Shown: positions 12,586 to 63,636, counted from the stretch's first letter. The stretch is DNA of 64,000 bases from Bdellovibrionales bacterium (GCA_965197425.1 CBDANC010000015.1:1-64000); one strand, 5' to 3'. Notes: generated from the sequence alone by a model not told the origin. Program-made: numbers and translations.

Positions 12586-12879
12586 CCTTTACTAAAGTTC
12601 TATTTTCGTGGTCGCTGACCGGAACGTAATTCACCCGCCAAAATGGAACAAGTCCCATTGTTTGCTGTTCATTAGCCTCACCTTAAGTTACAGGATCGGT
12701 ATCGTGTTCAGAGCTGGGCAACCACTCGGATAAAAAAAGTGAACAAGTCCATTTGTTTTTATTATCGCTCGGAAGACCTTAAGCTACAGGATCAACATCT
12801 TGTTCTAGTGCTGGTCAGGCACTCGGCCAAAAAAAAAGCAACAAAGTCACTTTGTTTTTGGCCTCATTAACCTCACCTT
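12586..12879 (-). repeat. Locus A of the dispersed repeat family: three tandem units (periods 95, 96, 99 bp), leftmost degenerate
   Basis: CCTT boundaries at 12586, 12681, 12777 and 12876; core GGATCGGTATCGTGTTCAGAGCTGGGCAACC from 12693; GAACAAGTCC in two units. Confidence 0.85.
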
Positions 12880-12884
12880 TGGTT

Positions 12885-13880
12885 TTAAAAATCGGCGTCC
12901 AGTTTGAACACCTGGTCTTTTCTCTTTGCTCTTACCCCAGATTTTTGGTAATCACCTACTCTTTTCTCAAAAAAGTTAGTTTTTCCCTGAAGAGAGATAA
13001 GCTCCATCCAATCAAATGGGCTTTTAGAGTTATACACTTTGTTAGCACCCAGGCTTAACAGAAGTCTATCTGCTACAAACTCAATATATTGGCTCATCAG
13101 CTCCGCATTCATGCCTATTAAGCTAACTGGAAGAGCGGATGTAACAAAACTTTTTTCTATCTCAACAGCCTCTGTAATTATCTGTGTAACCATATCAGTG
13201 TGTGGTTTGTTGTTAAGAAGACCAAACAGTAGACATGCAAAGTCTGTATGTAATCCTTCGTCTCTACTTATAAGTTCATTAGAAAAAGTAAGTCCTGGCA
13301 TAAGGCCACGCTTTTTTAACCAGAAGATAGAACAAAAACTACCAGAGAAGAAAATCCCTTCAACGGCAGCGAAAGCTATAAGCCTGTGAGCAAAGGAATC
13401 ACTATCGTTAATCCAACGAAGTGCCCAGTTCGCTTTTTGTTTCACAGCAGGTATGGTTTCTATAGCATCAAATAAATACTGTTTTTCCTCTTCATCTTTT
13501 ATGTATGTGTCTATAAGTAGACTGTAGGTTTCTGAGTGTATGTTTTCTACTGCCATTTGAAAGCCATAAAAACATCTGGCCTCTGGTATTTGTACCTCAT
13601 TACAAAACTGTATTGCTAAGTTCTCGTTTACTATACCATCACTTGCAGCAAAAAATGCCAGTACGTGTTTTATAAAATGTTGTTCATCAGAACTTAACTT
13701 TTCCCAGTCATTCATGTCTGCTGAGAGATCGATCTCCTCCGCTGTCCAAAAACTAGCTTCTGCTTTTTTGTACATATCCCAAACAGAAGGATACTTGATA
13801 GGCAACAACACAAATCTATTTGGATTTTCTTTTAAAATTGGTTCCTCTGCTAAATTTTTTGTAGTCACATCATCTGTCAT
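12885..13880 (-). CDS. nrdB: Class Ia ribonucleotide reductase beta subunit
   Basis: [38 protein letters not shown] and KTNFFEKRV motifs. Confidence 0.97.
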
Positions 13881-14168
13881 ATCATCTACCTCTAATTAAA
13901 TGTCTAAACACAACCAACCAAACATTATGGGTCTTAATTTTTAACTTATGATCGCATACTAAATCAAACCTATAATTTATTTATCTTGTAACCTATTAAA
14001 AGAACTAGAAATGTCTATGCCACGCTGGGTCTTTTGTTTGTATAGAAGTAAAACAAGCAGGTGGGCTTTACGATGTATAAAATGGACATATATAATGCAA
14101 AGATGTATAAGGACAGACTAAAGTGATATTAAGATTTTAGAAAATATTTAATGGAATTTAGAAAATAA

Positions 14169-15116
14169 ATGAACAGCATCATTGTAAAAGCAAAAATACT
14201 AGAGGCTTATAGATCTGCACTTTATGTAGTCATATCAAGTATTATATTGAGCTTATTTTTTTCTATAGCTTTTGCACAGACAGGGCCTGTTGGTACGGCT
14301 CTATCGGGCCCTGCTAGTGCAAAAAGTGGAATTAACCCAGAGCTTATGCTGTCTAACCCAGCATCCCTGTCTGCGGCAAAAAATGTTTATCTAGGTACTA
14401 TAACAACATTTGGAAATAGCGGTAGGCTTGAACTTACTCGCAATATATCTTTGCGGAATACTTATAGTGTATATGTGGTAGATAGAGGAAGTGATTTGTT
14501 GCTTCCGCTTTCGCTTTTTTATACTCGTAGTTACTTGGATATACGAAGCCCAATGGCACAAAGTGATATGAGCAGCGTCTATGTTGCAACTGTGTTTGAT
14601 ATCACCCCAACGCTGTCTTTGGGTGCAGGGTATTATAGGAGCAATCTTGGAGATAGTAACAGTAATTACTTAAAACTTGGGACAATATATGCTTTTTCTG
14701 AAACCGTAAGTTTTGGAGCATCCTATCACCAAGACATATTTAACAATAACACAAGTGACAACGCAATCTCTCTAGGCGCGAGGGTGCTTTTGCTAAACAA
14801 GATAAATGTGTTTTTAGATCTTACTCGTAGAAGTTGGACGTACACTATAAGAAGTAATGATGGTGTGGCTAATAGAAATAGCATGATTAGTTTGGCATTA
14901 GAAAATAAAATTTCTGATTTTATAATACGGCTCGGAGTGAACACACCTTTTTCAAAAGATATTAAAGACGCGCATTTTTCTTGTGGACTTGGATTTGAAG
15001 GACCTAAAATTGGTGTAGATTATGGACTGGGATACTATAGGCCCGTAACAAACAACACAACTTATGAATCTATACGTGAGTTTACACATAGCTTTGACTT
15101 AAACATTTATTTTTGA
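14169..15116 (+). CDS. Putative outer-membrane beta-barrel protein
   Basis: Signal peptide (AFA/Q), NPA motif, alternating beta strands and C-terminal DLNIYF. Confidence 0.6.
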   Translation: MNSIIVKAKILEAYRSALYVVISSIILSLFFSIAFAQTGPVGTALSGPASAKSGINPELMLSNPASLSAAKNVYLGTITTFGNSGRLELTRNISLRNTYSVYVVDRGSDLLLPLSLFYTRSYLDIRSPMAQSDMSSVYVATVFDITPTLSLGAGYYRSNLGDSNSNYLKLGTIYAFSETVSFGASYHQDIFNNNTSDNAISLGARVLLLNKINVFLDLTRRSWTYTIRSNDGVANRNSMISLALENKISDFIIRLGVNTPFSKDIKDAHFSCGLGFEGPKIGVDYGLGYYRPVTNNTTYESIREFTHSFDLNIYF

Positions 15117-15129
15117 GAAACTACAGCGC

Positions 15130-15258
15130 ATGGCATCTCCAACAAAACAGACAAGACTTAGAAGAAAGATGAAGAAAGCTAAGGCAGGTGCTGAAAGAAA
15201 GAAGAAAAATAAAAACCAAGGCACTACTAAAAGTGCTAAAGTACTCTTCAAAGACTAA
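15130..15258 (+). CDS. Small basic protein, 42 aa (MASPTKQTRLRRKMKKAKAGAERKKKNKNQGTTKSAKVLFKD), absent from the ORF track
   Basis: Intact ATG..TAA frame read by hand; 16 of 42 residues are K/R. Confidence 0.65.
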   Translation: MASPTKQTRLRRKMKKAKAGAERKKKNKNQGTTKSAKVLFKD

Positions 15259-15318
15259 TGCTTCCCTCCATCACATAAAAATGCAAGGATGCTATTTGAA
15301 GGTGAGAGATAGTAGGGG

Positions 15319-15999
15319 TTGTCTTTTAAGGAAGTTGAAAATGGGACACTTAAACTTAGAGCAAATAACAGAGACTTAAAGTTGATAACAGGGTTTGGTT
15401 CTAAACACTTTTTGGTACTTGTTCTCTCATCAGCTTTTTTGATTTCTTGTGAAACCACACAAAAATCCGCAGACTCAACTAGAGATTCCTTGCCTTCTAG
15501 AGGAATTTCCAGCGTTAATTCCTTCGTAGATAGCAGAGGACACTCTCCCTTGCACGAAGCAACCAGAAGTGGTGATGTAAGATTAATTACTAGCTTAGTG
15601 CAATCAGGAGGAGATATAAACATTGGAGATGCAATGGATGAAACTCCATTACATCTGGCGGCCAGAACAGGTCAAACAGCAGCGGTTAGAACTTTGGTGC
15701 GGTTGGGCGCTACGGTAAGCACAAAAGACAGGAAAGGACATACCCCTTTGCATGAAGTAGCTAGAAATGGTGATTCAGAAGCTGTTCGTTTTTTGGTAGG
15801 AGCTGGTGCAAATATAAATGAAATAGAGAAAACGAAACTGCACTTCACTTATCAGCTAAAAACAACCAACTAGAAACTTCAAGAGCTTTGGTTGAGTTGG
15901 GTGCTGACACAACGCTGAGAGACAGAGGTGGAAATACAGCCCTCCAAATCGCAACGAGAAAGGGTTATCGAGAAATCGTGTTCTGTACTTGAAAGGTAA
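15319..15999 (+). CDS. Ankyrin-repeat lipoprotein with apparent frameshifts (~15825 and ~15980)
   Basis: Lipobox LISC; SPLHEA, TPLHLA and TPLHEV repeats; two more repeats (NETALHLSAK, GNTALQIA) continue in another frame. The true start is probably downstream of 15319. Confidence 0.8.
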
Positions 16000-16013
16000 A
16001 GTTATTGTTTTAC

Positions 16014-16039
16014 CTCGCCCACTTTAGAAGTCGGGCGGG
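16014..16039. terminator. Hairpin between the convergent ankyrin and histone genes
   Basis: CTCGCCC-ACTT/AAGT-C-GGGCGGG stem followed by ATTCTTT. Confidence 0.55.
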
Positions 16040-16044
16040 ATTCT

Positions 16045-16254
16045 TTACAGATGATCTACAAAGATGTCTTTATCCATAACAGTTTTTCGTTTTTGAGCTT
16101 TAGCGTTGTCCACACCTCTTTTGCAAAGTGCTTCTACAGCTTTTGAAATCTGCGTAATTGCTGAGCTAGAAGTACTAAGCCCATAATTTTCCTTTATGTG
16201 TTTTTTCACCTTGCTGGTTACAATCAGTACACTTGCTAATAAAACTTCCGGCAT
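16045..16254 (-). CDS. Bacterial histone-fold protein (Bd0055/HBb type)
   Basis: LIVTSKVKKHIK...CKRGVDNAKAQKRKTVMDKDI with the histone RKTV..D motif; AGGAGG RBS; closely resembles B. bacteriovorus Bd0055 as I recall it. Confidence 0.9.
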   Translation of the reverse strand: MPEVLLASVLIVTSKVKKHIKENYGLSTSSSAITQISKAVEALCKRGVDNAKAQKRKTVMDKDIFVDHL

Positions 16255-16480
16255 TTAAACCTCCTTTCTACTTGCTTTTTATGAAAGGTTTTTAGGTATT
16301 TATCAATAATTTAAACATAAATTTTTAAATAATCCCATAGTCAAATAAGAGGGATATATCAGTTAACATATTAAAAATACTAGATTAATTCAAATATTTG
16401 CACATCTACAAAGCTTGTCAATAAATAGTGATATTTTTTCATACATCAACCTTGGGTGAGGTTATGGGAATGCACTTTTG

Positions 16481-17731
16481 TTATGTATTTTCTACATAGA
16501 TATTGGCAGTTAGGCCTTTTAGTTTGTCTTGAATTTTTTCATACCCTCGATCTATATGGTATGCACGATGAATTATTGTTGTTCCTTTAGCTGCTAATCC
16601 TGCAATTACTAAACTTGCACTTGCTCTTAAATCAGTTGCCATCACCTGTGCCCCGCATAGATCTTTTTTTCCTCTAATAATTGCTACTGTGGTTTTAGAA
16701 GTTATGTTTGCTCCAAGTCTATTTAGCTCCGAAACATGCATAAATCTATTTTCAAAAATTGTCTCTGTTATAACACTACTACCGCAAGCTTGAGTCATTA
16801 AGGCCATGAATTGTGCTTGTAAATCCGTAGCAAATCCAGGGTATGGTGCTGTGGTAACATCTACAGGCCCTATAGTTTTTCCCGGAGTTATTTGGATATA
16901 ATCCTTCCCTGAGCTTATATTAAAACCAGCTTCTTTTAATTTGCGTGTCAGTGCATCCAGGTGTTTGGGCTCACAAATAACTTTTACATTTCCCTTTGTT
17001 ATAGCACCTGCTATCAAAAATGTGCCAGCCTCTATCCTATCAGGCATTATCTCGAAAGTTTCAGGTGTTAGTTTGTCCACCCCCTCCACTTCTAATACAC
17101 TTGTACCAACACCTTCTATCTTAGCCCCCATTTTTTTTAGGTAAGTTATCAGATCATTAATTTCAGGTTCCTTTGCAGCATTTTCGATTACGGTTGTTCC
17201 CTTTGCCAGCACTGCGGCCATAAGAATATTTTCAGTCCCTCCAACGCTTACGCCATCGAATACAATTCTTGATCCAGTAAGACTCAAAGCGGTTGCACTC
17301 ACATACCCATTTTTTATTTGAATGTCAGCACCCAAACTCTTTAATCCTTCAATATGTTGATTTATGGGCCTTGTTCCAATTGCACAACCACCAGGAAGGC
17401 TCACCAAAGCTTCCCCCCATTTGGAAACAAGAGGTCCTAAGCACAGTATGCTAGCTCTCATTTGCTTTACTAATTCATAAGGGGCTTTGGTATTAGAAAT
17501 ATTAGAGGTATCAACAGTGATACAACTTTCTTGTCTGGTTGTTTTTGCGCCAAAACTATCTAGCAACTTTAAAGTCAGATCAACATCTTTTAGATCTGGA
17601 GTATTTGTAAACTCATGTTTTCCTTTGGCAAGTAGGGTAGAAAATAAAATGGGAAGAACGGCATTTTTTGCTCCACTTACTTTAACTTCACCTGTTAGGG
17701 TATTAGGACCTTTAATAACTATTTTTTTCAT
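16481..17731 (-). CDS. murA: UDP-N-acetylglucosamine 1-carboxyvinyltransferase
   Basis: SGAKNA, LPGGCAIGTRP and ATDLRA motifs. Confidence 0.98.
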   Translation of the reverse strand: MKKIVIKGPNTLTGEVKVSGAKNAVLPILFSTLLAKGKHEFTNTPDLKDVDLTLKLLDSFGAKTTRQESCITVDTSNISNTKAPYELVKQMRASILCLGPLVSKWGEALVSLPGGCAIGTRPINQHIEGLKSLGADIQIKNGYVSATALSLTGSRIVFDGVSVGGTENILMAAVLAKGTTVIENAAKEPEINDLITYLKKMGAKIEGVGTSVLEVEGVDKLTPETFEIMPDRIEAGTFLIAGAITKGNVKVICEPKHLDALTRKLKEAGFNISSGKDYIQITPGKTIGPVDVTTAPYPGFATDLQAQFMALMTQACGSSVITETIFENRFMHVSELNRLGANITSKTTVAIIRGKKDLCGAQVMATDLRASASLVIAGLAAKGTTIIHRAYHIDRGYEKIQDKLKGLTANIYVENT

Positions 17732-17741
17732 ATCTACTTCC

Positions 17742-18548
17742 TTAAGGTTTTTTAGCTTTTATAATTCTAGCTACATTATGAAGATCATTTATTAGTTCTA
17801 TTTTATCAAATCCATTTTTTTCAAAAATTTCTTTGGCTTTTGTTCTTTGGCCATATCCTATTTCAAAAATAGCTATCCCCTTTGTTTTTAAAAAATCATG
17901 TGAAAGCTTTGACCATTTTTGTATACATTCAAGTCCTGTCATTCCAGAGAACAAAGCTTCCCAAGGTTCGTAGTTTTTAACCCCATCATCTAAATGATCT
18001 AGGTATGAAACATAGGGCGGGTTTGATACTACAAGATCATAGTTTTTGCCTTTAAAATCAGAAACATCTGCTCTTTCAAATGAAAAGTTTTTTACCCCAT
18101 GTTTAAGATAGTTCTTTTCTATTACTTCAACCGCAGACTTTGATTTTTCTATTGCATGAACTTTTAAATTTTTTCTAGATAAAGCAATAGAAATTCCAAT
18201 GCATCCTGAGCCTGCACCCATGTCCAAAACAGATCCTTCTCTAGGCAAAGAGTCTATGGCTAAAGAAACCAAAAGCTCAGTTTCAGGCCTTGGGATTAAT
18301 ACATCTGGAGTTATAAAAAAATCAAATCCATAAAACTGAGTTTGACTAATTATATACTCCAAAGGCTCACCTGAATTTCTTCTTTTAATTAGTTTTGCTA
18401 GAATAAGTTTTTGATCGTTTGTTAGGTTTATGTCAGAAAATAATAAAGCTTCTTTTTTTATTTTTAGTATGTGACAAAGTAGGAGTTCTGCATCCAGCCT
18501 TGGATTTTCTGCATGAAACTCTTTTGCAATAGCGTTTATTAAAGACAT
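17742..18548 (-). CDS. prmC: Release factor glutamine methyltransferase
   Basis: LIPRPETE, DMGAGSG and SNPPY motifs; follows prfA. Confidence 0.95.
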   Translation of the reverse strand: MSLINAIAKEFHAENPRLDAELLLCHILKIKKEALLFSDINLTNDQKLILAKLIKRRNSGEPLEYIISQTQFYGFDFFITPDVLIPRPETELLVSLAIDSLPREGSVLDMGAGSGCIGISIALSRKNLKVHAIEKSKSAVEVIEKNYLKHGVKNFSFERADVSDFKGKNYDLVVSNPPYVSYLDHLDDGVKNYEPWEALFSGMTGLECIQKWSKLSHDFLKTKGIAIFEIGYGQRTKAKEIFEKNGFDKIELINDLHNVARIIKAKKP

Positions 18549-18565
18549 TACTTTACCGTATTCCT

Positions 18566-19633
18566 TTAACCATCTTTTAAAGCTTGGGTTTGAAAATATG
18601 TTGTTACATGATCTATTAAATTTGACATCTGACCATTCATTACATCGCCTAGCGCTTTTGTGGTATATCCCACTCTGTGGTCCGTTATCCTAGATTGTGG
18701 AAAATTGTAAGTTCTAATTCTTTCTGATCTATCTCCAGTGCCTATTTGTTGGAGTCTTTTTTCAGATTCACTTTGCCTAAATTTCCTGTTTTCCATATCT
18801 AAAAGTCGTGCATATAGAACCTTCATAGCTTTATTTTTATTTTTTAACTGGGATTTCTCATCCTGACAAGACACCACTATTCCAGATGATATGTGTTTTA
18901 TCCTGACAGCAGAATCAGTAGTGTTTACATGTTGCCCTCCACTTCCACTAGATCTATAGACATCTATTTTTAAATCGTCAGGATCTATTTTTACATCTAC
19001 CTCATCTGCTTCTGGTAATACAGCAACGGTAATTGTAGAAGTATGAACTCTCCCCTGACTTTCAGTTCTGGGCACTCTTTGAACTCTATGTACTCCACTT
19101 TCATATTTTAATTTGCTAAATACCTTATCTCCACTCAAAGCTGCTATTACTTCTTTATATCCCCCGGCATTTCCTTCTGAAATAGAAATTACATCTACCT
19201 TCCATTTTTTACTTGTTGCAAAAAGGCCATATGCTCTAAACAATTCCTCCGTAAACAAACTGGCTTCGTCACCTCCAGCACCTGCTCTTATCTCTAAAAT
19301 TATGTTTTTGTTGTCATTTGGATCTTTTGGAATAAGTTGTTCTTTAAGTTTTTTTTCTAAAACCTCTTTTTTTGCTTTCAGATCTCCTATTTCATCCCTA
19401 GCAAGTTTGGTTAGTTCTTGATCTGTTGAATCATTTATTAACTCTTGGTTTGATTCAATTTGTGCTTTAATAACTTTAAATTGTCCGTAGATCTCCATCA
19501 TAGGGTTAATCTCAGAAAACTCTTTCATCAGCTCTTGATATAGGGATTTGTTTTTGATAACTTCCGCATCTTGAAGCTTTTTTTTAATCTCTTCAAATCG
19601 CAGATTGATGTCGTCTAAATCTTTAAACAACAT
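18566..19633 (-). CDS. prfA: Peptide chain release factor 1
   Basis: PRT specificity motif (RVPRTE), GGQ and ERIRTYNF. Confidence 0.97.
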   Translation of the reverse strand: MLFKDLDDINLRFEEIKKKLQDAEVIKNKSLYQELMKEFSEINPMMEIYGQFKVIKAQIESNQELINDSTDQELTKLARDEIGDLKAKKEVLEKKLKEQLIPKDPNDNKNIILEIRAGAGGDEASLFTEELFRAYGLFATSKKWKVDVISISEGNAGGYKEVIAALSGDKVFSKLKYESGVHRVQRVPRTESQGRVHTSTITVAVLPEADEVDVKIDPDDLKIDVYRSSGSGGQHVNTTDSAVRIKHISSGIVVSCQDEKSQLKNKNKAMKVLYARLLDMENRKFRQSESEKRLQQIGTGDRSERIRTYNFPQSRITDHRVGYTTKALGDVMNGQMSNLIDHVTTYFQTQALKDG

Positions 19634-19848
19634 TATTTTTTGAATTTAGCATATCGTTTGTTAAATCTTTCAACCCTTCCTTCAACATCCACCAGTTTTT
19701 GCTTTCCGGTATAGAAAGGGTGACAATTGCTACAAATATCCACTTTTATTCTAGGTAGAGTAGAGCCAGTCAAAAAAGAATTTCCACAAACACATGTGAC
19801 CTTAGAGTCTTTATGCCAACTAATATCTTTTTGTACATTTTGTTTCAT
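19633..19848 (-). CDS. rpmE: 50S ribosomal protein L31 (Zn-binding type)
   Basis: CVCG...[13 protein letters not shown]. Confidence 0.95.
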
Positions 19849-19938
19849 GTTTGTCTCTTTGTTTTTTCCTTCTTATATTCTCTTATAAAAAACAGGTTTG
19901 TGCTTTTAGTTCAAGTTAAACATTAAGGCAACTAACAT

Positions 19939-21537: not shown

Positions 21538-22000
21538 GTAAAATTTTGCCTAAAATTGATGGTAAAGCTTTAAAACTGAATCTAACAAAATAGGTGGACT
21601 ATATTACTACAACTTAATTACAACACCTTAATTACAACACCCTAAGTTTCAGAATATCCTTAACCTTCTAGAAAACAGATCAACACCACATCTTTAATAT
21701 ACTTACCTAACATCTCTTTAATTAATATCTTCATTTTAAACAAGAGCTTTAATGTGATAGATCCTTGGTAGATTTTCTTGAAACTAAAGGCGTGAAAACA
21801 CAACCCCAGACGCTAACAACCCAAGGCCCTAAAGTCAATGCTTTTTGTAAAAGAAAGGTGCACAGGGGGTCTAAAGATGCGGTTTTTTTGAATAAAATAG
21901 TTAAGATTAAATCCTTTTCTCTGACCTAAATGAAGTCAAAAATAACTCCTGCCACTATCTCTGGGCGGGTCTGTAGATTAGCAATATTAATGTAATGAAA

Positions 22001-23380
22001 CTATATTTGTGTTTCGCCGCCAAGCCCGGCAGTGTTTTCAATATCTCTTTGCCTAGCTTTAGCTCTCTTTCTAATAGCCACAAGCAAGACAAGTGTTATC
22101 AAAACAACCCCTGCTGCAAGTATAGTTATTTTATCTCCCCCTCCAGGAAGCTTGTCCATAACCCCACCGCTGGTGGCAGCAGTGCCTTGGTTATCATCAG
22201 TATCTGCTAAGGCAGGCGGAAGTGGAGGAGGTGGAGGAGGCACATCACCCATAATATCAGAAGGAGGAGGAGGAGGTATGTCACCCATCATATCAGGAGG
22301 AGGAGGTGGAGGAGGAGGTATGTCACCCATCATATCAGGAGGAGGTGGAGGAGGCATGTCACCCATCATATCAGGAGGAGGTGAGGGAGGCATATCGCCC
22401 ATCATGTCGGAAGGAGGAGGTGGCATATCTGTTGGTGTACCACCTTCAGGTCCAACAGGCATGTCAGAAGCAGGTGGAGCTACAGCAACTGCTCCCGATG
22501 GCCAATATGCAATTTCTCTGTCTTGTGTTAATGTCCATTTTTCAGATTCTTCCAAATCTATATTTTTAGCCCAAAGCTCTTTCCAAGAATTTCTGTTGCC
22601 CAAAATATTTTCAGCAATATCTCTTATATTTTCGCCCCTCTTTGCAGAGTAAACACTAGGAGGGAGATTTGAATCTTCATAGTAAGACAAAAGCCTTCCT
22701 CTATCATCTGGCCTGTTTGGCGAGTTGTAGTAAACCTTATCACCCACAGAAATCTTATTAGCTAAATTTGGATTTATCTCTAAAAGTTCAGATTCTCTAT
22801 CAGGTGTTCTATATATCTTTGAACTTATAGAACTCAAAGAGTCTCCATCCCTTACAATGTAAACAGCGTTGACTAAACGAGAAGCCTTATCATACGGCTC
22901 TGACTTTATTTTCTTTACAGGTATAAATGTTCTTGTGCCTTCCTCAACATCATTGTATCCGGGCTCTGTATAGGCAAGATCATCTCCTCCATCTACTTCT
23001 TCATATCCTTCATCAAAACTTTCGTCAGAAGGAGCTTCTGCAGTGGTTCCATCGCCGGACCCATCTTCATCAAAAAAATCATCTCCCCCATCAGCTGCTT
23101 CGTCAGCCGATACATCATAGTCTTCTCCCTCAAAACCTTCCTCATCTAAAGACATATCATTTGCATCAGCCATTTCATCCATCGAAGGTTCTTCGAAATC
23201 TTCATCTAAGGGATCGTCTGGGAATTCTTCATCTAGGGCTCCGTCATCAAAATCTTCAAGACCAGAGTCACCTGCCATTGCTTCCGAACTATCTAAATCA
23301 CTGGCCCCATCATCTTCCTTTTTGTTGGAAGTACAGCCAATAAAACTAAACAATAGTAAAATTAAAAATAAATGTCTCAA
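22001..23380 (-). CDS. LysM-domain lipoprotein with acidic N-terminus, Pro-rich repeats and C-terminal TM helix
   Basis: Lipobox FIGC; YIVRDGDSLSSIS and YSAKRGENIRDIA LysM-like segments; C-terminal hydrophobic helix followed by a basic stop-transfer segment. Confidence 0.75.
   Translation of the reverse strand: MRHLFLILLLFSFIGCTSNKKEDDGASDLDSSEAMAGDSGLEDFDDGALDEEFPDDPLDEDFEEPSMDEMADANDMSLDEEGFEGEDYDVSADEAADGGDDFFDEDGSGDGTTAEAPSDESFDEGYEEVDGGDDLAYTEPGYNDVEEGTRTFIPVKKIKSEPYDKASRLVNAVYIVRDGDSLSSISSKIYRTPDRESELLEINPNLANKISVGDKVYYNSPNRPDDRGRLLSYYEDSNLPPSVYSAKRGENIRDIAENILGNRNSWKELWAKNIDLEESEKWTLTQDREIAYWPSGAVAVAPPASDMPVGPEGGTPTDMPPPPSDMMGDMPPSPPPDMMGDMPPPPPPDMMGDIPPPPPPPPDMMGDIPPPPPSDIMGDVPPPPPPLPPALADTDDNQGTAATSGGVMDKLPGGGDKITILAAGVVLITLVLLVAIRKRAKARQRDIENTAGLGGETQI
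22219..22430 (-). repeat. Coding tandem repeat D(M/I/V)P(n)DMMG, about 5.5 copies
   Basis: Repeated TGTCACCCATCATATCAGGAGGAGG on the + strand with variable GGA/GGT run length. Confidence 0.9.
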
Positions 23381-23531
23381 CTAGATCTCTTTTTTAATCT
23401 AATTATTCCGCCTATTGTCCAATTACAGCACAATGAAAAAATATAATAAACAGCTAACTTTAAGTTAAAGGCTTTGGTCTAGTTGTTTTAAAAATTTAAG
23501 ACTTTGGTCTAAGTAATGGACATATACAAAT

Positions 23532-24020: not shown

Positions 24021-24040
24021 AACTATACCTTCTACAATCT

Positions 24041-30606: not shown

Positions 30607-30608
30607 TT

Positions 30609-31124: not shown

Positions 31125-31144
31125 CTTTCCTCCTAAAAATTTTT

Positions 31145-51867: not shown

Positions 51868-51889
51868 ATTCTCACTCCTATTAGTCTTT

Positions 51890-52199
51890 GGTCTCATTAA
51901 ACTTACTTTTAGCAAATGGATCGGCATCGTGTCCAGAGCTGGGCAACCATTCAGCTAAAAAAGTTTCTTTGCTCAGCGACGTGCTTTGCACACCGCTACG
52001 CCAATCAACTTTTATTAGCCTAATTAGGAAGACCTTTGGCAAATGGATCGGCATCGTGTCCAGAGCTGGGCAACCTCTCAGTAAAAAAACCGACCTTGGG
52101 GAGGTTGTTTCAATTGGAAAACATAAAGATTTATCTCGTGAGCCAATTGAACCAAAGAAGGCAAAGCCTCCTTATTTTTTACCTCGTTAACCTCACCTT
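51890..52199 (-). repeat. Locus B of the dispersed repeat family: two tandem units (127 and 163 bp)
   Basis: Identical 37-mer GCAAATGGATCGGCATCGTGTCCAGAGCTGGGCAACC at 51912 and 52039; same end motifs as loci A and C. Confidence 0.92.
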
Positions 52200-52724
52200 T
52201 AGCTTTTTTTTTACTTCTAAAATACCCTTTTTGGTTTTTGAAGAACACACAAAAACATTATTAATTCCAGACACACTCTTTATTTTATCCATTTTTTTAT
52301 TTGTATCTTTTAATTTATCAGCTTTACTTAGTATTATATAAATGGGAATCGACTTGTTTTTAGCTAATTTTATCAACATAATTTCATCTTTTGTTAAATC
52401 TCTTCGTATATCCATCAAAAGAAGCATTAGCCTTAGCTCAGATCTTGTTTGTAGATAATTTTCTACCATATTCTTCCATTTATTTATCTCATCAAAACTT
52501 CTTTTGGCATAACCATATCCTGGCATATCTACTAAAATATAATCTTTCATATCAAAAAAGTTTAAAAGATTTGTTTTGCCAGGTATTTTAGACACTCTGG
52601 CAACTTTGGCACCCGATAATGAATTTAAAAAGGAAGACTTGCCAGCGTTAGAACGACCTACCAGGGCAACTTCAGGCATTGAATGTACAGGATAGTCATA
52701 GTCACAACTTTTTATAAACATCAA
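52179..52724 (-). CDS. engB: Ribosome biogenesis GTPase YihA/YsxC
   Basis: GRSNAGKS, PGKT, DMPGYGYA and SKAD motifs. Confidence 0.95.
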   Translation of the reverse strand: MMFIKSCDYDYPVHSMPEVALVGRSNAGKSSFLNSLSGAKVARVSKIPGKTNLLNFFDMKDYILVDMPGYGYAKRSFDEINKWKNMVENYLQTRSELRLMLLLMDIRRDLTKDEIMLIKLAKNKSIPIYIILSKADKLKDTNKKMDKIKSVSGINNVFVCSSKTKKGILEVKKKLKVRLTR

Positions 52725-52726
52725 AG

Positions 52727-52855
52727 AGTCTCATTCCTGAGACTTAAAATCTCAAAAACGGTACTCAAGCTAAGGTTAAGTTTTCAAGCTGTCAATAAAT
52801 TTATAAGTGTTTATAGGTAGTAATAATTTTTAATATGTGTGGCATAATTTTTGAT
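52727..52855 (+). promoter_or_regulatory. Palindrome AGTCTCA-N4-TGAGACT (52727-52744) and sigma54-like TGGCAT-N5-TTGA (52840-52854)
   Basis: Perfect 7-bp inverted repeat ~100 bp upstream of a -24/-12-like element (GA instead of GC at -12). Confidence 0.5.
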
Positions 52856-52884
52856 TACCTTATTTGAGCTGAGGAGGATTTCTT

Positions 52885-55185: not shown

Positions 55186-55293
55186 TTTTTAACGTTTCCT
55201 TAATTTTATTAACAAATTGTTAACATGGAACCTAAAAGGTGATAAACATCAGGTTAATTGGTTTTAGCGATTTTGTTATAAAGCTGCAAGTGA

Positions 55294-56754: not shown

Positions 56755-56853
56755 TTAAAACCTTAGACCGCTAATTTTTTGATAAGCTTTGCCCCTCAGC
56801 ATCTTATTACTTTCATATTATTCTCTAGACTTATGTATGATTAAAAAATTCAT

Positions 56854-58245
56854 ATGGTTAATTGTCTAAGAGTTTTTTTAATATGTGTCGATATTTATAT
56901 TATGGCATTAAATACAAAATTGGATCTGAGTAAAAACACTATTGTGTATGGCAATTGCTCTGATGAAGATGGTCAGGGTTGGCTTAATTTAATATCCGAA
57001 AAATCTGTTGATTTGATTTATATAGATCCTCCATTTTTTTCAAACAGGGATTATAAAGTTGTGTGGGGCAATGGTTACGAAGTTCGCTCTTTTGGAGATC
57101 GATTTAAAGGTGGAATTGATCATTACATTAATTGGATGAAACCAAAAATTTTAGAATCAAAAAGAGTATTAAATGATACAGGATCTATTTTTTTACATTG
57201 TGACTGGCATGCAAGTCATAGACTTAGGTGTTTATTAGATGAAGTATTTGGAGAAAAAAGTTTTATAAATGAAATAATATGGTTTTATCCCAATGGTGGA
57301 GGAAGGAGTAAATCTTGGCTTAACAAAAAACATGACACAATTTTTTGGTACGCTAAAGACAAAAACAAATTTAAATATAATTGGAAAGAAATAGCTTTAA
57401 GTCGAAATCAAGATCAAAAAACTTTTGGAGGGTATTTTAAAACAGATAATAAGGGAACTTATCAAGAAGTAAGATCAAACGGTAAGGTATATAAGTACTA
57501 TGTTGACGAGCCAAAAAATAATGATGATGTTTGGTTTTTAAATATTATTTCTCAAAGAGATACAACAGAGAGAATTGGATATAGAACTCAAAAACCTGAA
57601 GCTTTGATAAAAAGGATTGTAGAGTGTTCTACTGATAAAAATGATGTAGTGTTAGATTTTTTTGGTGGGGGCGGTACTACTGCAAAGGTTTGTTCTGATT
57701 TAGATAGGAGATTTATCACAGGTGATGTATCTCCTATTGCTGTTAGAGTAACAGCAGATCGGTTGAGTGATAATGGATATAGAGACTATGAAATAAAAGG
57801 ATTGCCTTCTACAAAAAAAGAATACCATAGTATGCACAAAAACAAGTTTGTTCAAATAATATGCGACCTAATGGGCTGGGATAGGAATTTAAAAAAATCA
57901 TTAAACAATACTTTTGATGGATTTGCTGATGAGGGTAATATACCTGTTTTTATTCAAAATCAAAGTGAGAAAACTTCTATACCCGATATTAAAAAATTCT
58001 TAAAGCTTTTAGCTAAACATAAAAAAGGAATCTTTGTTTCTTGGGATTTTTCCAAAGAAGCGTCAGAATATGTGTATAGTTTAATACAACAAAAAATAAC
58101 ACTACTTGCAGTTAAGGAAATTTTAAACGGCTTATTAATTTCTGATGAATTATCTAAAAAGCCAAAGAAATTATATGATGCTGATACAAAAAAGATTTCT
58201 TGGGAAGACAAGTCTGTGCATGGATTAAAGCAAAAAACAGCATAA
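56854..58245 (+). CDS. N4/N6 DNA methyltransferase (beta class) fused to a degenerate Mrr-like domain
   Basis: DPPF precedes TQKPE and DFFGGGGTT; extra ~140-aa C-terminal domain; probable start ATG 56902. Confidence 0.85.
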   Translation: MVNCLRVFLICVDIYIMALNTKLDLSKNTIVYGNCSDEDGQGWLNLISEKSVDLIYIDPPFFSNRDYKVVWGNGYEVRSFGDRFKGGIDHYINWMKPKILESKRVLNDTGSIFLHCDWHASHRLRCLLDEVFGEKSFINEIIWFYPNGGGRSKSWLNKKHDTIFWYAKDKNKFKYNWKEIALSRNQDQKTFGGYFKTDNKGTYQEVRSNGKVYKYYVDEPKNNDDVWFLNIISQRDTTERIGYRTQKPEALIKRIVECSTDKNDVVLDFFGGGGTTAKVCSDLDRRFITGDVSPIAVRVTADRLSDNGYRDYEIKGLPSTKKEYHSMHKNKFVQIICDLMGWDRNLKKSLNNTFDGFADEGNIPVFIQNQSEKTSIPDIKKFLKLLAKHKKGIFVSWDFSKEASEYVYSLIQQKITLLAVKEILNGLLISDELSKKPKKLYDADTKKISWEDKSVHGLKQKTA

Positions 58246-58288
58246 AATCTATAAGCAAATTTAAAATTTATAATAAGCTAGTATATTT

Positions 58289-59212
58289 TTATTCGCTTTC
58301 TTTGTTTGGCAATTCTGGTTCCTTTTGAGGCTGAGAGAAATTTGCTATTTGATTTTGTATATCAGGGTCTAGCTTCACAAACTCAATCCCATATCTAGAT
58401 GACCCCTTATCATCTTTAGTGATATTTACTACCTTACATTTAGCACTAAAAGAGGGTAGATGGTCTCCAGGTTTAAAGTCTAGCAAAATGATACTTTGAT
58501 CTTCTATATCCGCATTTTCTACTGTAATGGCAGCGCCAGATTCTCCTATGGAGATACCCGTTCCAAGATATAAAGTCTCACCTGACTGAATTACCACCGG
58601 TATGTTGCACAATCTTCTAGGATATTTTCTTCTGAAAAATTTGTCCTCAATAGGTTCATCAAAATTGACCCCTTCTAATTGGGACAACTTTTCTATACTA
58701 GACTTTTCAAAATCACTGACTTCTGCAATTTTCATCCACTGTTCAAGACCTTGTTTCCAGGTATAGTCATACTCATATACTAGGCTGGATAGAAGCATCT
58801 GAGCTATCTCTACATGGTCAAATGGTCCATATCTATCCTCATTTCTCAGCACAAACCATGTTTTTTCGGTGTATTTAGATAATTCTTCTTTAGCTTTATC
58901 TTCATCTAAACCGCTGCTATTAGCTTCTTGATTAATATCAGAAGTTCCTTTGCTAGAATTTTCTTCTCCACTGGTCCCTTCTTGTAGAGTATCTTTTCCT
59001 GGAAAAGTAGGTTCCTCAGATTGGTCTACACCAGACACACATTTCATTATATAATCATGGCTTACAATTGTAACCCAGGTTTCAGACTCTTCATCATATA
59101 TCAGATCACTTAACTTGTATGTGTTGCTCTTTAACTTTTCTATTATTTCAGACACTGGCAACGGATCTGTCTGTTCTTCATTAACGTATAAATAAAATAA
59201 CTTTTCAGACAT
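58289..59212 (-). CDS. Tandem GYF_2 (DUF4339) plus PilZ domain protein
   Basis: WFVLRNEDRYGPF...WKQGLEQW, a similar N-terminal repeat, then RRKYPR...YGIEF. Confidence 0.75.
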   Translation of the reverse strand: MSEKLFYLYVNEEQTDPLPVSEIIEKLKSNTYKLSDLIYDEESETWVTIVSHDYIMKCVSGVDQSEEPTFPGKDTLQEGTSGEENSSKGTSDINQEANSSGLDEDKAKEELSKYTEKTWFVLRNEDRYGPFDHVEIAQMLLSSLVYEYDYTWKQGLEQWMKIAEVSDFEKSSIEKLSQLEGVNFDEPIEDKFFRRKYPRRLCNIPVVIQSGETLYLGTGISIGESGAAITVENADIEDQSIILLDFKPGDHLPSFSAKCKVVNITKDDKGSSRYGIEFVKLDPDIQNQIANFSQPQKEPELPNKESE

Positions 59213-59340
59213 TTTTCTATCTCCTAACCTTTACTCTACTAAGTCACTACACGAGAGAATCGGCTTAAATTTGCCGAGACATAACAGAAATCCACATAAA
59301 ATAACGCTTCCATGTCACGAATCTTTGCTTATATTAAGCT

Positions 59341-61479
59341 TTAAATTCTGTCTGCTCTTATAACACTCTTAATTTTAGAGATCTGTTGTAAGGTTAAGTT
59401 AATATGATTGACGCTTTTTACGGCAACATCAAAAATACATATTGCCTTTTTGTTTTTAATTGTTCTGATATGGGCATTTGATATGTTTATGTTGTTCATC
59501 GTGAATGTCTCACTTATTGATTTGAGTACTCCAGATGTATCATTACATAACACACGAATTTTTGTGTTTCTGATAGGGCTTTGTGCCTGCTCTCGTTCCC
59601 ACTCTACCTCTACAATTCTATCTCGATCCATTTCAAATGTTTTTTTACAGGACGATCTATGGATAGTAACGCCCCTTTCACGAGAAATAAATCCAACTAT
59701 TGGATCGCCTGGAATAGGATGGCAGCACTTAGCATAATATATCAAAATATCCGACATTCCATCGACTTTGACCATCGACTTTCCACTAGGGCGTTTGTAT
59801 CTTCTAAATATTTTTTTCAGAAAAGAATCTTCATCTTCTGTCTTAGATTCTGTTCCTGATAGCAAGGTTGTGATCTTAGATGGAGTATGTTTTCCATATC
59901 CAATTTGAACATACAGTTCTTCGACTTTGTGTATTCCCAAACTTTCCATTACTTTTTTGGCGTTAGGTGCATTAATGATATTGTTAAGCTTTAACTTCAG
60001 CTTTGTACACTCCTGCTCTAAAAGAGTTTTGCCCAAACTTATTGAATGCTTTCTTTCATTTGCTCTTATAAAAGCTCTAATTTTGGACTGAGCTTTAGAA
60101 GAAGTGCAAAATGAAAGCCAGTCTTTTGAGGGGGTTTGATGTGGTGAAGTTAGAATTTTTACGGTATCTCCGTTTCGTAACTTGTGTTTTATAGGAACCA
60201 TCTTGCCATCAACTTTTGCTCCTACAGTTTTACTTCCTATATCAGAGTGTATTGCATATGCAAAATCCAGTGCTGTTGCGCCATCTCTTAACTCTTTAAC
60301 ATCACCCCTTGGAGTAAATACATAAATATCTTCATCCATTAGATCTAATTTTATGCTTTCTAAAAATTCACTGGAGTCGTCGATATCTCTATGCCAACTA
60401 GTTAAACTCTTTAACCACTCAAAATTTTCTTTTGTCTTGATATCCACCTGCCCTTTTTCTTTGTAAGACCAGTGCGCGGCAATGCCATTTTCTGCTACTT
60501 CATGCATCTGTTTGGTTCTGATTTGAATCTCTACCCTTTGACCTCCTGGCATAATTACAGCGGTATGTAAGCTTTGGTAATTATTAACCTTTGGCATGGC
60601 TATATAGTCCTTAAATCCTTCAGTAATTGGTCTATAGGAGCTGTGCATGAGGCCTAATATTTCATAACAATTAGAAATTGTTTCCGTGATAATTCTAAAC
60701 CCAAATATATCAAGTACATCTTCATACTCTATGTTTTTGTCTCTCATTTTTCTGTATATTGAGTAAATGTGTTTAGTTCTTCCGTATATTCGAGGTTTCA
60801 AGCTGGTATTTTGATCTATTTTTTCAGATAACACTGCTATAACTTGTTCAATGTATTTGTCGTGTTCTTCTTTTTTTTTGGTTACTTTCGAAGAGAGTTC
60901 TTGATAAATCTGAGGTTTTAAGTGCTTAAAACTTAAACCTTCCAACTCCATTTTCCATGAACTGATTCCCAATCTATTGGCTATTGGAGCGTATATATCC
61001 AAAGTTTCTTGAGATACGTTAAGTTGCTTTTCATAAGGCATATACTTCAAAGTTCTCATGTTGTGCAGACGATCTGCAATTTTTACGATTATTACCCTCA
61101 TATCTTGACCCATTGCTACTATCATCTTTCTGATATTTTCACTTTGAGCCACATGGGTATTTTTAAAATTCATCTTGGATATTTTGGTAACACCATCCAC
61201 CACATTTCTTACAGTCTTACCAAACTGTTTTTCTATTTCATCGATTGAGGCGGCAGTGTCCTCCACTGTGTCATGCAAAAGAGCTGCGACAATGGTAGTA
61301 GTGTCAAAATACAATTCGGACAATAAAAAAGCCACACCTGCAGGGTGGGTTATATAGGGCTTGCCACTTTTTCTAAATTGCCCCTGATGGACATTCTTTG
61401 CAAACTCATAAGCTCTGACTATTAAATTTAAATGTTCCTTGGAATATATCTTGGAAAAAGCACTTGTAAATTCTTCCAA
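59341..61479 (-). CDS. spoT: Bifunctional (p)ppGpp synthetase/hydrolase Rel/SpoT
   Basis: HD motif LHDTVED, YQSLHT, EIQIRT, TGS, CC and ACT domains. Confidence 0.95.
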   Translation of the reverse strand: MEEFTSAFSKIYSKEHLNLIVRAYEFAKNVHQGQFRKSGKPYITHPAGVAFLLSELYFDTTTIVAALLHDTVEDTAASIDEIEKQFGKTVRNVVDGVTKISKMNFKNTHVAQSENIRKMIVAMGQDMRVIIVKIADRLHNMRTLKYMPYEKQLNVSQETLDIYAPIANRLGISSWKMELEGLSFKHLKPQIYQELSSKVTKKKEEHDKYIEQVIAVLSEKIDQNTSLKPRIYGRTKHIYSIYRKMRDKNIEYEDVLDIFGFRIITETISNCYEILGLMHSSYRPITEGFKDYIAMPKVNNYQSLHTAVIMPGGQRVEIQIRTKQMHEVAENGIAAHWSYKEKGQVDIKTKENFEWLKSLTSWHRDIDDSSEFLESIKLDLMDEDIYVFTPRGDVKELRDGATALDFAYAIHSDIGSKTVGAKVDGKMVPIKHKLRNGDTVKILTSPHQTPSKDWLSFCTSSKAQSKIRAFIRANERKHSISLGKTLLEQECTKLKLKLNNIINAPNAKKVMESLGIHKVEELYVQIGYGKHTPSKITTLLSGTESKTEDEDSFLKKIFRRYKRPSGKSMVKVDGMSDILIYYAKCCHPIPGDPIVGFISRERGVTIHRSSCKKTFEMDRDRIVEVEWEREQAQSPIRNTKIRVLCNDTSGVLKSISETFTMNNINISNAHIRTIKNKKAICIFDVAVKSVNHINLTLQQISKIKSVIRADRI

Positions 61480-61526
61480 GCTCTTACATGTATCAGGTTG
61501 GATTTTTTTATAACTAAGCGAAATCC

Positions 61527-61766
61527 TTATTCACCTTTCAAACTTTTTTGAATCTGCATCTGAGGAGTGCCACTAGCTTCATCGTGCCTGAAGCTAACTT
61601 TTTTTGAGGCAACCTCCCTAAGAGCGGTTACAACACTCATGTTATCGGTCTTTAAAAGCGGCTCCGCCCCAGAATACAGGCTCCTAGCCCTCTTAGCAAC
61701 TAACATCACCAACTCAAACCTGTTTGTTACCTTATCTAAACAATCTTCTACAGAAATTCTAGCCAT
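61527..61766 (-). CDS. rpoZ: RNA polymerase omega subunit
   Basis: MARISVEDCL...NRFELVMLVAKRAR...ALREV. Confidence 0.96.
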   Translation of the reverse strand: MARISVEDCLDKVTNRFELVMLVAKRARSLYSGAEPLLKTDNMSVVTALREVASKKVSFRHDEASGTPQMQIQKSLKGE

Positions 61767-61926
61767 GCATTCACCTCAATCTAACACTCACTCCGACTAC
61801 TAAAAACTTGCTTTTTGGCAGACAAACTATGTTTCGGTCTATCGCTATTCCTTAAGCTCTATCTGCCTACAATTCACGTTGTTTTCGTGGTCCTTTCTTC
61901 TACCACTAAGTTTACCAAACTTCACC

Positions 61927-62502
61927 TTATTTTATAATATTCTCGACAATTTTTCTAAATTTTTTATAAGCTTCATCAAAATTGTTGTTTATTATCTGGT
62001 GATCATATTCACAGGCACTTTTCATTTCCATATCAACCACTCTTAACCTGCCTTCAATGTCTTCTGTACCTTTGTTCTTGCTTCTAGCCCTCAGCCGCTT
62101 TTCTAACTCCTCAATTGAAGGGGGAAGGATAAAAATGGTGTGGCTTTCAGGGTATAGCTTTTTTAAGCTGGTGGCCCCAGCTACATTTATATCCATCATT
62201 AGAAATTTGCTCCCTAAACTCATCCTCTCTATCTGATGCCTAGGAGTGCCATACAGCTCACCATGTACTTTTTCCCATTCTGCAAAATAATTTTCCTTTA
62301 TCTGTTTTTCGAAATAATTTTTACTGACAAAGAAATATTCTTGTTTATCTCTCTCACTTTCCCTGAGGCTCCTGGTGGTGCAACTGATGCTATAGGACAA
62401 ACAATTTTCTAGCTCCTTCAATATTTTGTTGCACAAGGTGGATTTGCCCACTCCACTAGGCCCTGATACGATAATCAAATTAGTTCCACCATAACTATTC
62501 AT
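61927..62502 (-). CDS. gmk: Guanylate kinase
   Basis: SGPSGVGKST, SCTTR, YGT and IFILPPS motifs. Confidence 0.96.
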   Translation of the reverse strand: MNSYGGTNLIIVSGPSGVGKSTLCNKILKELENCLSYSISCTTRSLRESERDKQEYFFVSKNYFEKQIKENYFAEWEKVHGELYGTPRHQIERMSLGSKFLMMDINVAGATSLKKLYPESHTIFILPPSIEELEKRLRARSKNKGTEDIEGRLRVVDMEMKSACEYDHQIINNNFDEAYKKFRKIVENIIK

Positions 62503-62504
62503 AA

Positions 62505-63356
62505 TTATTCTATATTCTGTACCTGTTCCTTTATTTGTTCAATCAATAATTTTGCTTCTATAACCATCTTGTTTGTTTGGTACTTATTGGATTTAGCTCC
62601 AATTGTATTTACTTCTCTTAACAGTTCTTGAGTATAAAAATCCATTTTTTTTCCAATAGGGTATATAGACCTCGTGTCTTTTTTAAAAGCTTTGATGTGT
62701 TCCTTTAGCCTAGAAACCTCTTCTGAAATTTCTGATTTATCTAAGTTAAACACCACCTCATATGCAAGTTTACTTAGATCTACACCACTAAACGATTGTT
62801 CTAGCCCCGATAATCTTTTTTTTATGTTTGTTCTTGGGATTTTAACTTTTTCTAGCTTAGAAATTATAAGGGTGAGTTTCTTTAAAATAGTGTCAATTTG
62901 CACCTTTGTTGCATTTCCTTCTTTTCTTCTGTTAGACAAAAGTCTTTCAGTAACCTTTTGTATTAAATTGCAAATTGACTTTTCTTCTAAATTACTTACA
63001 TATCTTTCTACCTTCACTGCTCGTTCAAACAAATTTGAGTTTAGATCAATGTTAGCTTTCAGTTTGGAAAATATTTTCTTATATACATCAGATATTTTTT
63101 TAGCAAGTTCCATGTCTAGCTCAACTTTTATGTTCTTGCCGGAGTTAATTTTGTTTATATATAAGTAAACATTTCCTCTATGGATTTTCTTTCTTATAAT
63201 GCCCCTAATTTTGGGTTCTAGAAAACTATATTCTTTAGGAAGGTTTAACTTAATATCCAAAAATCTGTTATTATAAGATTTAATGGTAATATCAATTATT
63301 GAACCATTAAATTTGTGAACTGTATTATAAAATCCAGTCATGCTATTCATATGCAT
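62505..63356 (-). CDS. yicC: YicC/YloC family endoribonuclease
   Basis: SMTGF, NNRFLDI, QELLREVNTIGAKS and EQVQNIE motifs. Confidence 0.93.
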   Translation of the reverse strand: MHMNSMTGFYNTVHKFNGSIIDITIKSYNNRFLDIKLNLPKEYSFLEPKIRGIIRKKIHRGNVYLYINKINSGKNIKVELDMELAKKISDVYKKIFSKLKANIDLNSNLFERAVKVERYVSNLEEKSICNLIQKVTERLLSNRRKEGNATKVQIDTILKKLTLIISKLEKVKIPRTNIKKRLSGLEQSFSGVDLSKLAYEVVFNLDKSEISEEVSRLKEHIKAFKKDTRSIYPIGKKMDFYTQELLREVNTIGAKSNKYQTNKMVIEAKLLIEQIKEQVQNIE

Positions 63357-63442
63357 CTCCTGTCATATGTATTCTATGATGCGCTTACTGATTATAGCAG
63401 TCCAGTTGAAAGTAACTGTGTCAAAGTGTTTGTTTAGCTTCT

Positions 63443-63636
63443 TTATTTTTTGCCTCGTTCGGAAGACCTTAGAGTAACAGGATCGGCATCGTGTTGCAGA
63501 GCTGGGCAACCACTTGGATAAAAAACCGACTGCAAAGAGGTTCATCCAATTGGAAAATATAAAGGTTTATCCCGTAAGCCAATTGAACTAAAGAGAACAA
63601 GTCCACTTGTTTTTATCCTCGTTCGGAAGACCTTAG
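63443..63636 (-). repeat. Locus C of the dispersed repeat family: one 164-bp unit between 20-bp direct repeats
   Basis: CCTCGTTCGGAAGACCTTAG at 63453 and 63617; interior aligns with 52078-52199. Confidence 0.92.

Follow-up and report, generated by a model that had tools for sequence, protein, structure and literature searches.

Nested palindromic repeats with one fixed end at stop and start codons, a probably mobile gene-less family in a Bdellovibrionales bacterium

The window described here is a 64,000-nucleotide (nt) stretch of DNA from a Bdellovibrionales bacterium (GCA_965197425.1 CBDANC010000015.1:1-64000), whose genome of 1.60 Mb and 35% G+C is called G000 below. At three places, between nrdB and nrdA, between ysxC/engB and pyrG, and between miaA and yicC, it carries arrays of short palindromic units that recur throughout the genome. 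From their anatomy, their distribution and a comparison with the sister species, the only sequenced genome of the same genus (G001), we consider it on balance probable that they form a family of nested palindromic DNA repeats that is restricted to the genus, carries no genes and keeps one end fixed, and that this family is a mobile one.

RESULTS

The arrays of the window

The genes at the three loci were named through NCBIfam matches (nrdB, nrdA, ysxC/engB, pyrG, miaA and yicC); the nrdB score is under the curated NCBIfam cut-offs, and the edge of the window truncates miaA. The unit boundaries are marked by CCTT at 12586, 12681, 12777 and 12876 (locus 1), at 51906 (degenerate), 52033 and 52196 (locus 2), and at 63467 and 63631 (locus 3), and the features are as follows.

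12586-12684, minus strand: head-less chimeric unit with a CTCACCTT-type end, a short core hairpin and an arm of another subtype
12681-12780, minus strand: short unit with a GGAAGACCTT end, an A/T-run stem, a core hairpin and a GGATC head; the stem is imperfect
12777-12879, minus strand: short unit, first of its array, with an alternative covarying outer stem (AACCTCACCTT with GCTGGTCAGGC)
12885-13880, minus strand: nrdB; the protein ends at the same residue as its G001 ortholog
51888-51909, minus strand: residual end of a further unit, immediately 5' of the ribosome-binding site of pyrG
51906-52036, minus strand: long unit of ancestral type, its internal loops rich in purines and its apical loop C-AAA-G; recognised by the model made from G001 units
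52033-52199, minus strand: unit with a nested 64-nt module; gives ysxC/engB its last codons and stop (52179-52181)
52090-52153, plus strand: the nested 64-nt module (module M), in the A-run of the stem and of opposite folding polarity
52179-52721, minus strand: ysxC/engB GTPase (NCBIfam)
63435-63470, minus strand: truncated unit, the fixed end and one arm only
63467-63634, minus strand: unit with module M (63526-63589); gives miaA its last six codons and stop (63613-63615)
63613-64000, minus strand: 3' part of miaA (NCBIfam)

A first-pass annotation of this DNA had described six units at three loci, all with a GGATC head. Its loci were upheld, and the CCTT-to-CCTT spacings (95, 96, 99, 127, 163 and 164 nt) agree with the unit length of 95-164 bp that it gave; the head, however, is present in five of the six units, the sixth (12586-12684) being a head-less chimera, and two extra truncated unit ends lie beside the arrays (51888-51909 and 63435-63470). 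All the stem arms that it quoted are present, and that these differ between copies yet still pair is true in general, except that the second unit of locus 1 (12681-12780) pairs imperfectly (fold z +0.28 and +0.86 on the two strands); the third (12777-12879) has a fold z of -3.3. A 31-nt core has three matches in the window at up to three mismatches, against none in 100 shuffles. The AAGG end had also been placed close to the stop codon of the upstream gene at every locus, and this is correct for nrdB, whose stop is 5 nt ahead of it, whereas the stops of ysxC/engB and miaA fall inside the element, from which their last 6-7 codons derive. In window 9789-13880 the gene order is nrdB then nrdA, with the repeat array in between; the E. 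coli nrdAB transcript likewise holds a REP, according to one report (PMC12306157). Elsewhere in the window lie a gliding-motility-like cluster (2792-9145; a TPR protein and a GltG/GltJ-like FHA protein) and a LysM-like protein (22001-23380) that contains a proline-rich stretch of 36-42-nt tandem repeats (22224-22423).

Extent of the family and the sister species

With the six window units as blastn queries, 152 loci were retrieved in G000, and the core/head sequence gave 93 genome-wide matches at up to 7 substitutions and none in the reversed genome. Motif parsing, which sets a lower bound, put the G000 total at no fewer than 211 unit starts, spread over 139 loci, and counted 127 starts at 73 loci in G001. 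The G000 units follow a grammar of paired left and right halves of several types, several heads and several cores, and whole units or modules sit nested in one another's stems in either orientation. One end is constant, AAGG on the minus strand of the window, and at the other there is either a variable head or a truncation, many copies ending just past AGCTGGG. Units of G001 are about 125 nt long and start with TAAGG or TAAAGG; their long stem is interrupted by a purine-rich internal loop and capped by an apical C-(purine-N-A)-G loop, and a head hairpin closes the unit.

Proteins of the two species share a median identity of 71%, and blastn of a window unit found nothing in 40 relatives, G001 included. 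A covariance model (R1), built from 25 G001 units only, matches 11 places in G000 (best E 7.7e-14) and, with filters off, window positions 51906-52039 (29.6 bits, E 1.4e-4); because a model of G001 units matches G000 sites, the families of the two species are homologous in fold. R1 had no match in 59 other genomes at strict filters and with 56 candidates scored per genome, a scope in which distant relatives are to be read as not found rather than as proven absent. Exact patterns yielded no carrier among genome, metagenome and viral contigs, a G001-type pattern was seen in G001 only among 201 genomes of the order, and none of the yicC relatives in metagenome contigs was confirmed as a carrier. 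There was no Rfam match at gathering score in the window, nor at E<=1 in four loci with units of both species, and a limited literature search turned up no published description of such repeats in this bacterial group. The earlier proposal of an undescribed dispersed palindromic family is supported by these genome-wide copies and the lack of an Rfam match, and the covariance scan of the genome and its relatives places the family in G000 and G001 only. It is genus-specific among the genomes searched, and the G001 homologue is too diverged for BLAST.

Fold and covariation

Covariation of the stem, as described in the first-pass annotation, was borne out in both species. Among 21 G000 units (20 of the 29 parseable long units and one window unit), 18 of 31 pairs vary on both sides with a covariation score of 0.33, and among 25 G001 units (out of 99 distinct ones, picked for equal segment lengths) 12 of 32 pairs do so with a score of 0.32; none of 500 shuffles reached the score in either species, and with slid partners it fell to 0.03-0.08. 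In 20 units picked without the parser the loop adenines are invariant and 9/11 predicted pairs covary, and a tandem T.T mismatch in the outer stem is kept in both species. The apical loops are mostly AAA, GAA, GCA, AGA or GGA, or these plus A, and such loops are especially stable in DNA. The strand that begins with AAGG is the better folder (51/60 and 56/60 with RNA parameters, 47/60 and 51/60 with DNA parameters), and G.T outnumbers A.C in its stems by 36:1 and 27:13. At co-oriented loci this better-folding strand coincides with the mRNA in 31 of 86 cases in G000 and in 25 of 38 in G001, and the fold therefore does not depend on the host transcript. The suggestion that the units are a structured RNA used for processing or stability is weakened by these counts, and also by sites that are mostly unconserved.

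Docking at stop and start codons

Docking was counted on the first units of arrays, a fixed end within -1 to 8 nt being taken as docked. By this count, G000 has 32 of 59 docked on the stop of a co-oriented gene and G001 has 23 of 47; for the ATG of a gene read in the opposite direction the figures are 18 of 83 in G000 (13 of them as CCTT-N-ATG) and 3 of 27 in G001. At other intergenic sites with the same flanking motif the background was 11% and 14% for stops and 5% and 5% for starts. The description of the units as docked at gene 3' ends therefore stands for the stops but is incomplete, as the same end is also found on starts. The polarity at stops is fixed, and a gene boundary lies within -1 to 8 nt of the fixed AAGG end at 47 of 124 loci and of the far end at 14 of 124, against a uniform expectation of 24.7.

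The flank consensus is T(A/C)AA followed by GG in G000 and TA(A) followed by AGG in G001, where T occupies position -3 in 80% of junctions and TA or TAA is nearly always present; 27% of first units in G000 follow TCAA. Docking on stops peaks where TAA runs straight into AGG, with a second peak at a distance of 6-7 nt. TAA accounts for most docked stops (30/35 and 25/28) but for about half of all stops. Since docked proteins mostly end at the last residue of their ortholog (21/30 in G000 and 14/22 in G001; background 163/356), the native stop is the usual docking site, to which engB and miaA, reading into the element, are exceptions within the window.

Start-docked copies and relay open reading frames

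In G000 the hosts of start-docked copies include rpsD, rpsH, rplV, fusA, rpoC, smc, rsmE, cmk, pckA and a CusA/CzcA transporter gene. The element end is AGGAA in 14 of 19 start-docked copies and in 25 of 192 other units (p 4e-8), placing AGGA, which is complementary to the 3' end of this genome's 16S rRNA, 8 nt ahead of the host ATG; in the predicted fold this motif is mostly paired. A frame-0, ATG-started open reading frame (ORF) of at least 15 codons runs toward the host start in 12 of the 19, compared with 21/192 other units (p 7e-7), 10/64 undocked copies of the same orientation (p 1e-4) and 2/38 in the other two frames (p 5e-6), and in 11 of the 12 this relay ORF stops at the host ATG or no more than one codon away. 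Four hosts (smc, rsmE, rpsH and fusA) have, beyond the far end, a flank that by eye matches the native leader of G001 up to the ATG, and hence their old start is on the distal side of the insert; for fusA, the frame opened by that old start terminates within the unit. ATGA or ATGGA is repeated on both sides at smc, rpsH and rsmE, which over 29 arrays is not above chance.

Turnover between species and nested module M

All three junctions of the window are element-free in G001: the nrdB-nrdA gap measures 267 nt there and 747 nt in G000, the ysxC/engB-pyrG junction 65 and 281 nt, and the miaA stop overlaps the yicC start in G001 (-4 nt), where G000 has 262 nt. Of 976 3' ends compared between orthologs, 151 carry an element in at least one species: 96 are private to G000, 43 are private to G001, and the two species share 12. 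With three empty junctions and mostly unshared orthologous sites, the family therefore appears to have moved and turned over. No target duplication beyond chance was detected in 29 arrays with intact heads (p 0.28), a count that a 2-nt duplication would escape.

Module M, nested in two of the window units, also lies in frame in 5 of 17 four-helix-bundle genes (PF05635; one motif match from outside the family was dropped from the set), where it measures 66 nt with an AA repeat (64 nt + AA). The five genes were rejected as a clade (AU p 2e-45), and because the carriers form no clade, module M was inserted or converted repeatedly. Its 19-nt motif has 48 matches in G000 and none in G001. Altogether G000 has about 19 paralogous PF05635 (23S_rRNA_IVP) genes flanked by short tandem repeats (for example L109:11255-11545, C6:2366-2725 and C15:352894-353253), absent from G001. 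Separately, a unit seems inserted in a leader copy of giant pilin-like genes at G000 C13:37554-37729, and pieces of this leader recur next to arrays in G000.

DISCUSSION

Starting from the observed anatomy and copy number, the fold homology and covariation in two species, the docking of the fixed end, the unshared sites, the nesting and the enrichment of AGGA and relay ORFs, we propose the following explanation. The family very probably is or was mobile and would have been reshuffled by recombination between its copies. Its positions on stop and start codons are likely to come from a short target motif combined with selection for harmless insertions: the fixed end would join behind T(A/C)AA, a sequence given by a TAA stop or by a CAT start on the opposite strand, and with intragenic copies purged the survivors would accumulate at gene boundaries, a step in which we have good confidence. 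With similar confidence, a copy that arrives before a start codon would hide the ribosome-binding site in its stem and survive mainly when it offers AGGA and a short ORF, often beginning at the old ATG of the gene and ending on the new one, where the ribosome would re-initiate in a translational coupling like that of MIRUs. The ribosome-binding motif and short frame of start-docked copies thus likely keep essential genes translated.

More tentatively, and with somewhat less than even confidence, we suggest that the mover would be an enzyme that recognises hairpins and nicks and joins single strands, now lost or present only transiently, working like TnpA-REP or the IS200/IS605/IS91 transposases. 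From TnpA-REP or IS200/IS605 chemistry one would expect a fixed 5' end behind a four-base motif, 3' ends that are ragged, an absence of inverted repeats, growth in tandem, and a fold specific to one strand with conserved mismatches (PMC8266576, PMC3333891). Although the REP tag, the gene and a consistent strand bias are missing, single-strand transfer may be regarded as the leading mechanism, on the analysis made here, at the same guarded level. A bolder version appears unlikely to us, namely that these are self-nesting, single-strand-folded elements that keep the fold across the genus while the sequence is rewritten, that would be moved, in genomes devoid even of XerC/XerD, by a host enzyme or an unrecognised one outside the families searched, and whose fixed end would read gene boundaries from both strands and, by way of relay ORFs, have taken control of how translation of core ribosomal and RNA-polymerase genes begins.

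A number of results weigh against this explanation. As to the mover, in G000 and G001 no match was found to Y1_Tnp (PF01797; controls positive in 6/14), to the IS110 domains DEDD and Transposase_20 or to RVT_1 (controls worked for both), or to the tyrosine recombinase PF00589, and IS630 DDE_3 (PF13358) was found in none of five genomes including these two (controls positive in 5/14). The GTAG/CGTC tag of REP sequences is not at the unit ends, which are AAGG and variable heads; GTAG is present only inside one core-hairpin subtype and the G001 head. A lagging-strand bias like that of IS200/IS605 is not consistently seen, the counts being 42:33 in favour of the leading strand in G001 and 51:75, the opposite direction, in G000 under a weak replichore assignment, and local GC skew as a strand test is confounded by gene orientation. 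As to movement itself, shared sites exceed chance (odds ratio 2.4, p 0.014) and are undercounted by the motif search, and for these two reasons part of the pattern would be old copies rewritten in place; moreover, no clean empty site was seen among strains in four runs from other samples over a 19.9-kb region with six arrays (C13:58500-78400), a comparison limited by short contigs and by cross-mapping between copies, although in one strain a contig points, weakly (22 nt on one side), to another and shorter unit occupying that dock. Runs X3, X5 and X7 resemble strains of this species with an identity of about 95-97%. Regarding docking, the gene ends come from our own hexamer gene caller, and the second peak at 6-7 nt past the stop is not accounted for by the proposal. 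The relay ORF is missing in 7 of the 19 start-docked copies, and the ATGA overlap is not enriched, 52% of the ATG starts of the genome preceding A. Finally, in G001 the number of covarying pairs itself is not above shuffles (104/500), the rows of alignments A2 and A3 were hairpin-parsed with G.T allowed, which biases pairing and G.T counts, and the shuffle controls ignore the relatedness of units.

The first-pass annotation had noted that no mobilising enzyme lies in the window; none was encountered genome-wide either among the families searched, and the Y1 (RAYT), IS110 and reverse transcriptase genes looked for were found in neither genome. PF00589 is present in three other genomes of the family and in 14/14 controls, and for want of a match G000 and G001 have no XerC/XerD. 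Y2_Tnp gave no match, but its controls were silent too. Inspection of the genes flanked by repeats on both sides (17 and 6) revealed no transposase-like sequence, and a regular expression for the HUH motif (not validated on known proteins) found nothing in six frames. Two candidate partners were rejected: the PF05635 four-helix-bundle genes gave 20 tblastn lines in G000 and none in G001, and the single intact DDE transposase of G000 (C11:5853-7499) has ends unlike those of the element and is absent from G001, this gene and a fragment being confined to G000. The gene content of the two genomes differs elsewhere as well. YhgA-like (Rpn, PF04754) genes number one in G000 and form a family of 24 in G001 (e.g. 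L058:578-1693), where a 22-member predicted lipoprotein family often stands beside them, and contig C10 of G000 has phage-like genes absent from G001.

Among other explanations, the one that survives best, though we consider it improbable, is a miniature inverted-repeat transposable element (MITE) of the ERIC/RUP/Correia type moved by an IS630-like DDE transposase, which would duplicate TA or AA at a target in the stop codon or ahead of the ATG. The TA or TAA at nearly all G001 junctions (with T at -3 in 80%), the TA that follows G001 heads at 25-27 nt, the excess of TAA among docked stops (30/35 and 25/28, against about half overall) and a module M readable as 64 nt plus an AA duplication would all fit, TA ends and target duplications being typical of bacterial MITEs according to a review (PMC2229807). 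However, such an element would be expected to have terminal inverted repeats, and comparison of the ends by eye showed none, at most a few bases agreeing, with the far end a separate variable head or truncated. TCAA before 27% of the first units in G000 leaves no TA beside the end, the 29 arrays show no duplication beyond chance (p 0.28; one of 2 nt would escape), DDE_3 is missing from all five genomes, and the ends of the lone intact DDE transposase, itself absent from G001, look unrelated.

A domesticated intercistronic RNA, serving RNase III/E processing, stabilisation or stalling after the stop, maintained by host selection and made uniform by gene conversion with no present transposition, seems to us a little less probable still. 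It would account for long, perfect A/U-rich stems with G.U pairs and purine-rich internal loops, for stops within 15 nt, the distance at which REP-induced ribosome stalling is reported (PMC12306157), for the excess of shared sites and, weakly (22 nt on one side), for the shorter unit at one dock in a strain. On the other hand, of the 86 co-oriented G000 loci 55 have the folding strand antisense to the mRNA, most occupied sites differ between species whose proteins have 71% median identity, copies lie in both orientations within each other and within paralogous genes, and no unit end in the window scored as an intrinsic terminator, a reading that was itself dropped on that account.

Target-primed reverse transcription of an RNA of the window plus strand, with a fixed 3' CCTT and truncated 5' ends, is a very unlikely route. 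One fixed and one ragged end, with many copies stopping just past AGCTGGG, short ATG(A) duplications at some start-docked copies and the reverse transcriptases of two other genomes of the family speak for such a retro-element; neither G000 nor G001 has RVT_1, the conserved fold is on the opposite strand, and G001 lacks the Avd-like four-helix-bundle family, which would have made an attractive partner. Least credible of all is a non-autonomous IS110-family derivative aimed at the ribosome-binding region in the manner of IS900, for which the lack of inverted repeats and of a clear duplication, tandem insertion at the ends of earlier copies and insertion at ribosome-binding regions could be cited, but neither domain occurs in the two genomes and a literature search gave no support for the likeness to IS900. 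An HDV-like ribozyme, an integron attC site and TIGR were dropped because required elements are missing from the sequence, with no search aimed at them.

Compared with described repeats, the mobile palindromic family proposed here is MIRU-like at start codons and like BIME or ERIC arrays at stop codons, with full membership of none. It shares with MIRUs short dispersed repeats within operons at start codons, an ORF coupled to the host at -4 nt, sites filled in one species and empty in another, and no known dedicated enzyme (PMC12548453, PMC3184786). MIRUs differ in being 40-100 bp long and G+C-rich, with tetranucleotide direct repeats and imperfect terminal repeats (PMC12548453, PMC3184786), whereas here only about a tenth of the units sit on a start, the end that does so also meets stops on the opposite strand, the units are modular and nested, and no general duplication was found; insertion at a start codon with an ORF overlapping the host start was seen in 12 of the 19 start-docked copies, and in that subset only. 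With REP/BIME sequences and their TnpA-REP (RAYT) it has in common strand-specific hairpins, conserved mismatches, mosaic tandem arrays, ends that can give stop codons, and arrays that outlast loss of the enzyme in strains (PMC8266576, PMC3333891, PMC3733652). A strand-specific fold with conserved stem irregularities is indeed present, but units are 65-165 nt long instead of 20-40, and there is no Y1 gene in either genome. Like ERIC/IRU, RUP, Correia and YPAL, these are palindromic intergenic repeats of 100-170 nt that are co-transcribed with genes and have TA-rich junctions and extra internal modules (PMC2229807); unlike these MITEs they are polar, with a ragged far end, no demonstrated target duplication and no IS630-type gene. 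BOX of Streptococcus pneumoniae resembles them in its modular subunits, variable tandem arrays and some ORFs, but its modules follow one another in succession (PMC3184786), while here they are nested in stems in either polarity and docked on codons.

A second, unrelated tandem palindromic family is also present in G000, made of GTAGG-tagged REP-like hairpins with a unit of about 78 nt, in a genome without a Y1 transposase, at the following places.

G000 C15:87340-87640: GTAGG-tagged REP-like family
G000 C14:348230-348420: GTAGG-tagged REP-like family
G000 C12:155140-155290: GTAGG-tagged REP-like family

The family remains one more variant within a known class; its organism is uncultured, and no enzyme is in hand. 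It nevertheless bears on the question of how short palindromic repeats spread without a transposase. The same fold with the same conserved mismatches and loops, kept while the sequence has diverged beyond the reach of BLAST, marks what the mover or selective agent reads. In addition, the start-docked and stop-docked copies of one element, with the relay ORFs upstream of rpsD, rpsH, rplV, rpoC and smc, provide an internal quantitative control for the hypothesis, put forward for MIRUs, that relay ORFs make insertions harmless.

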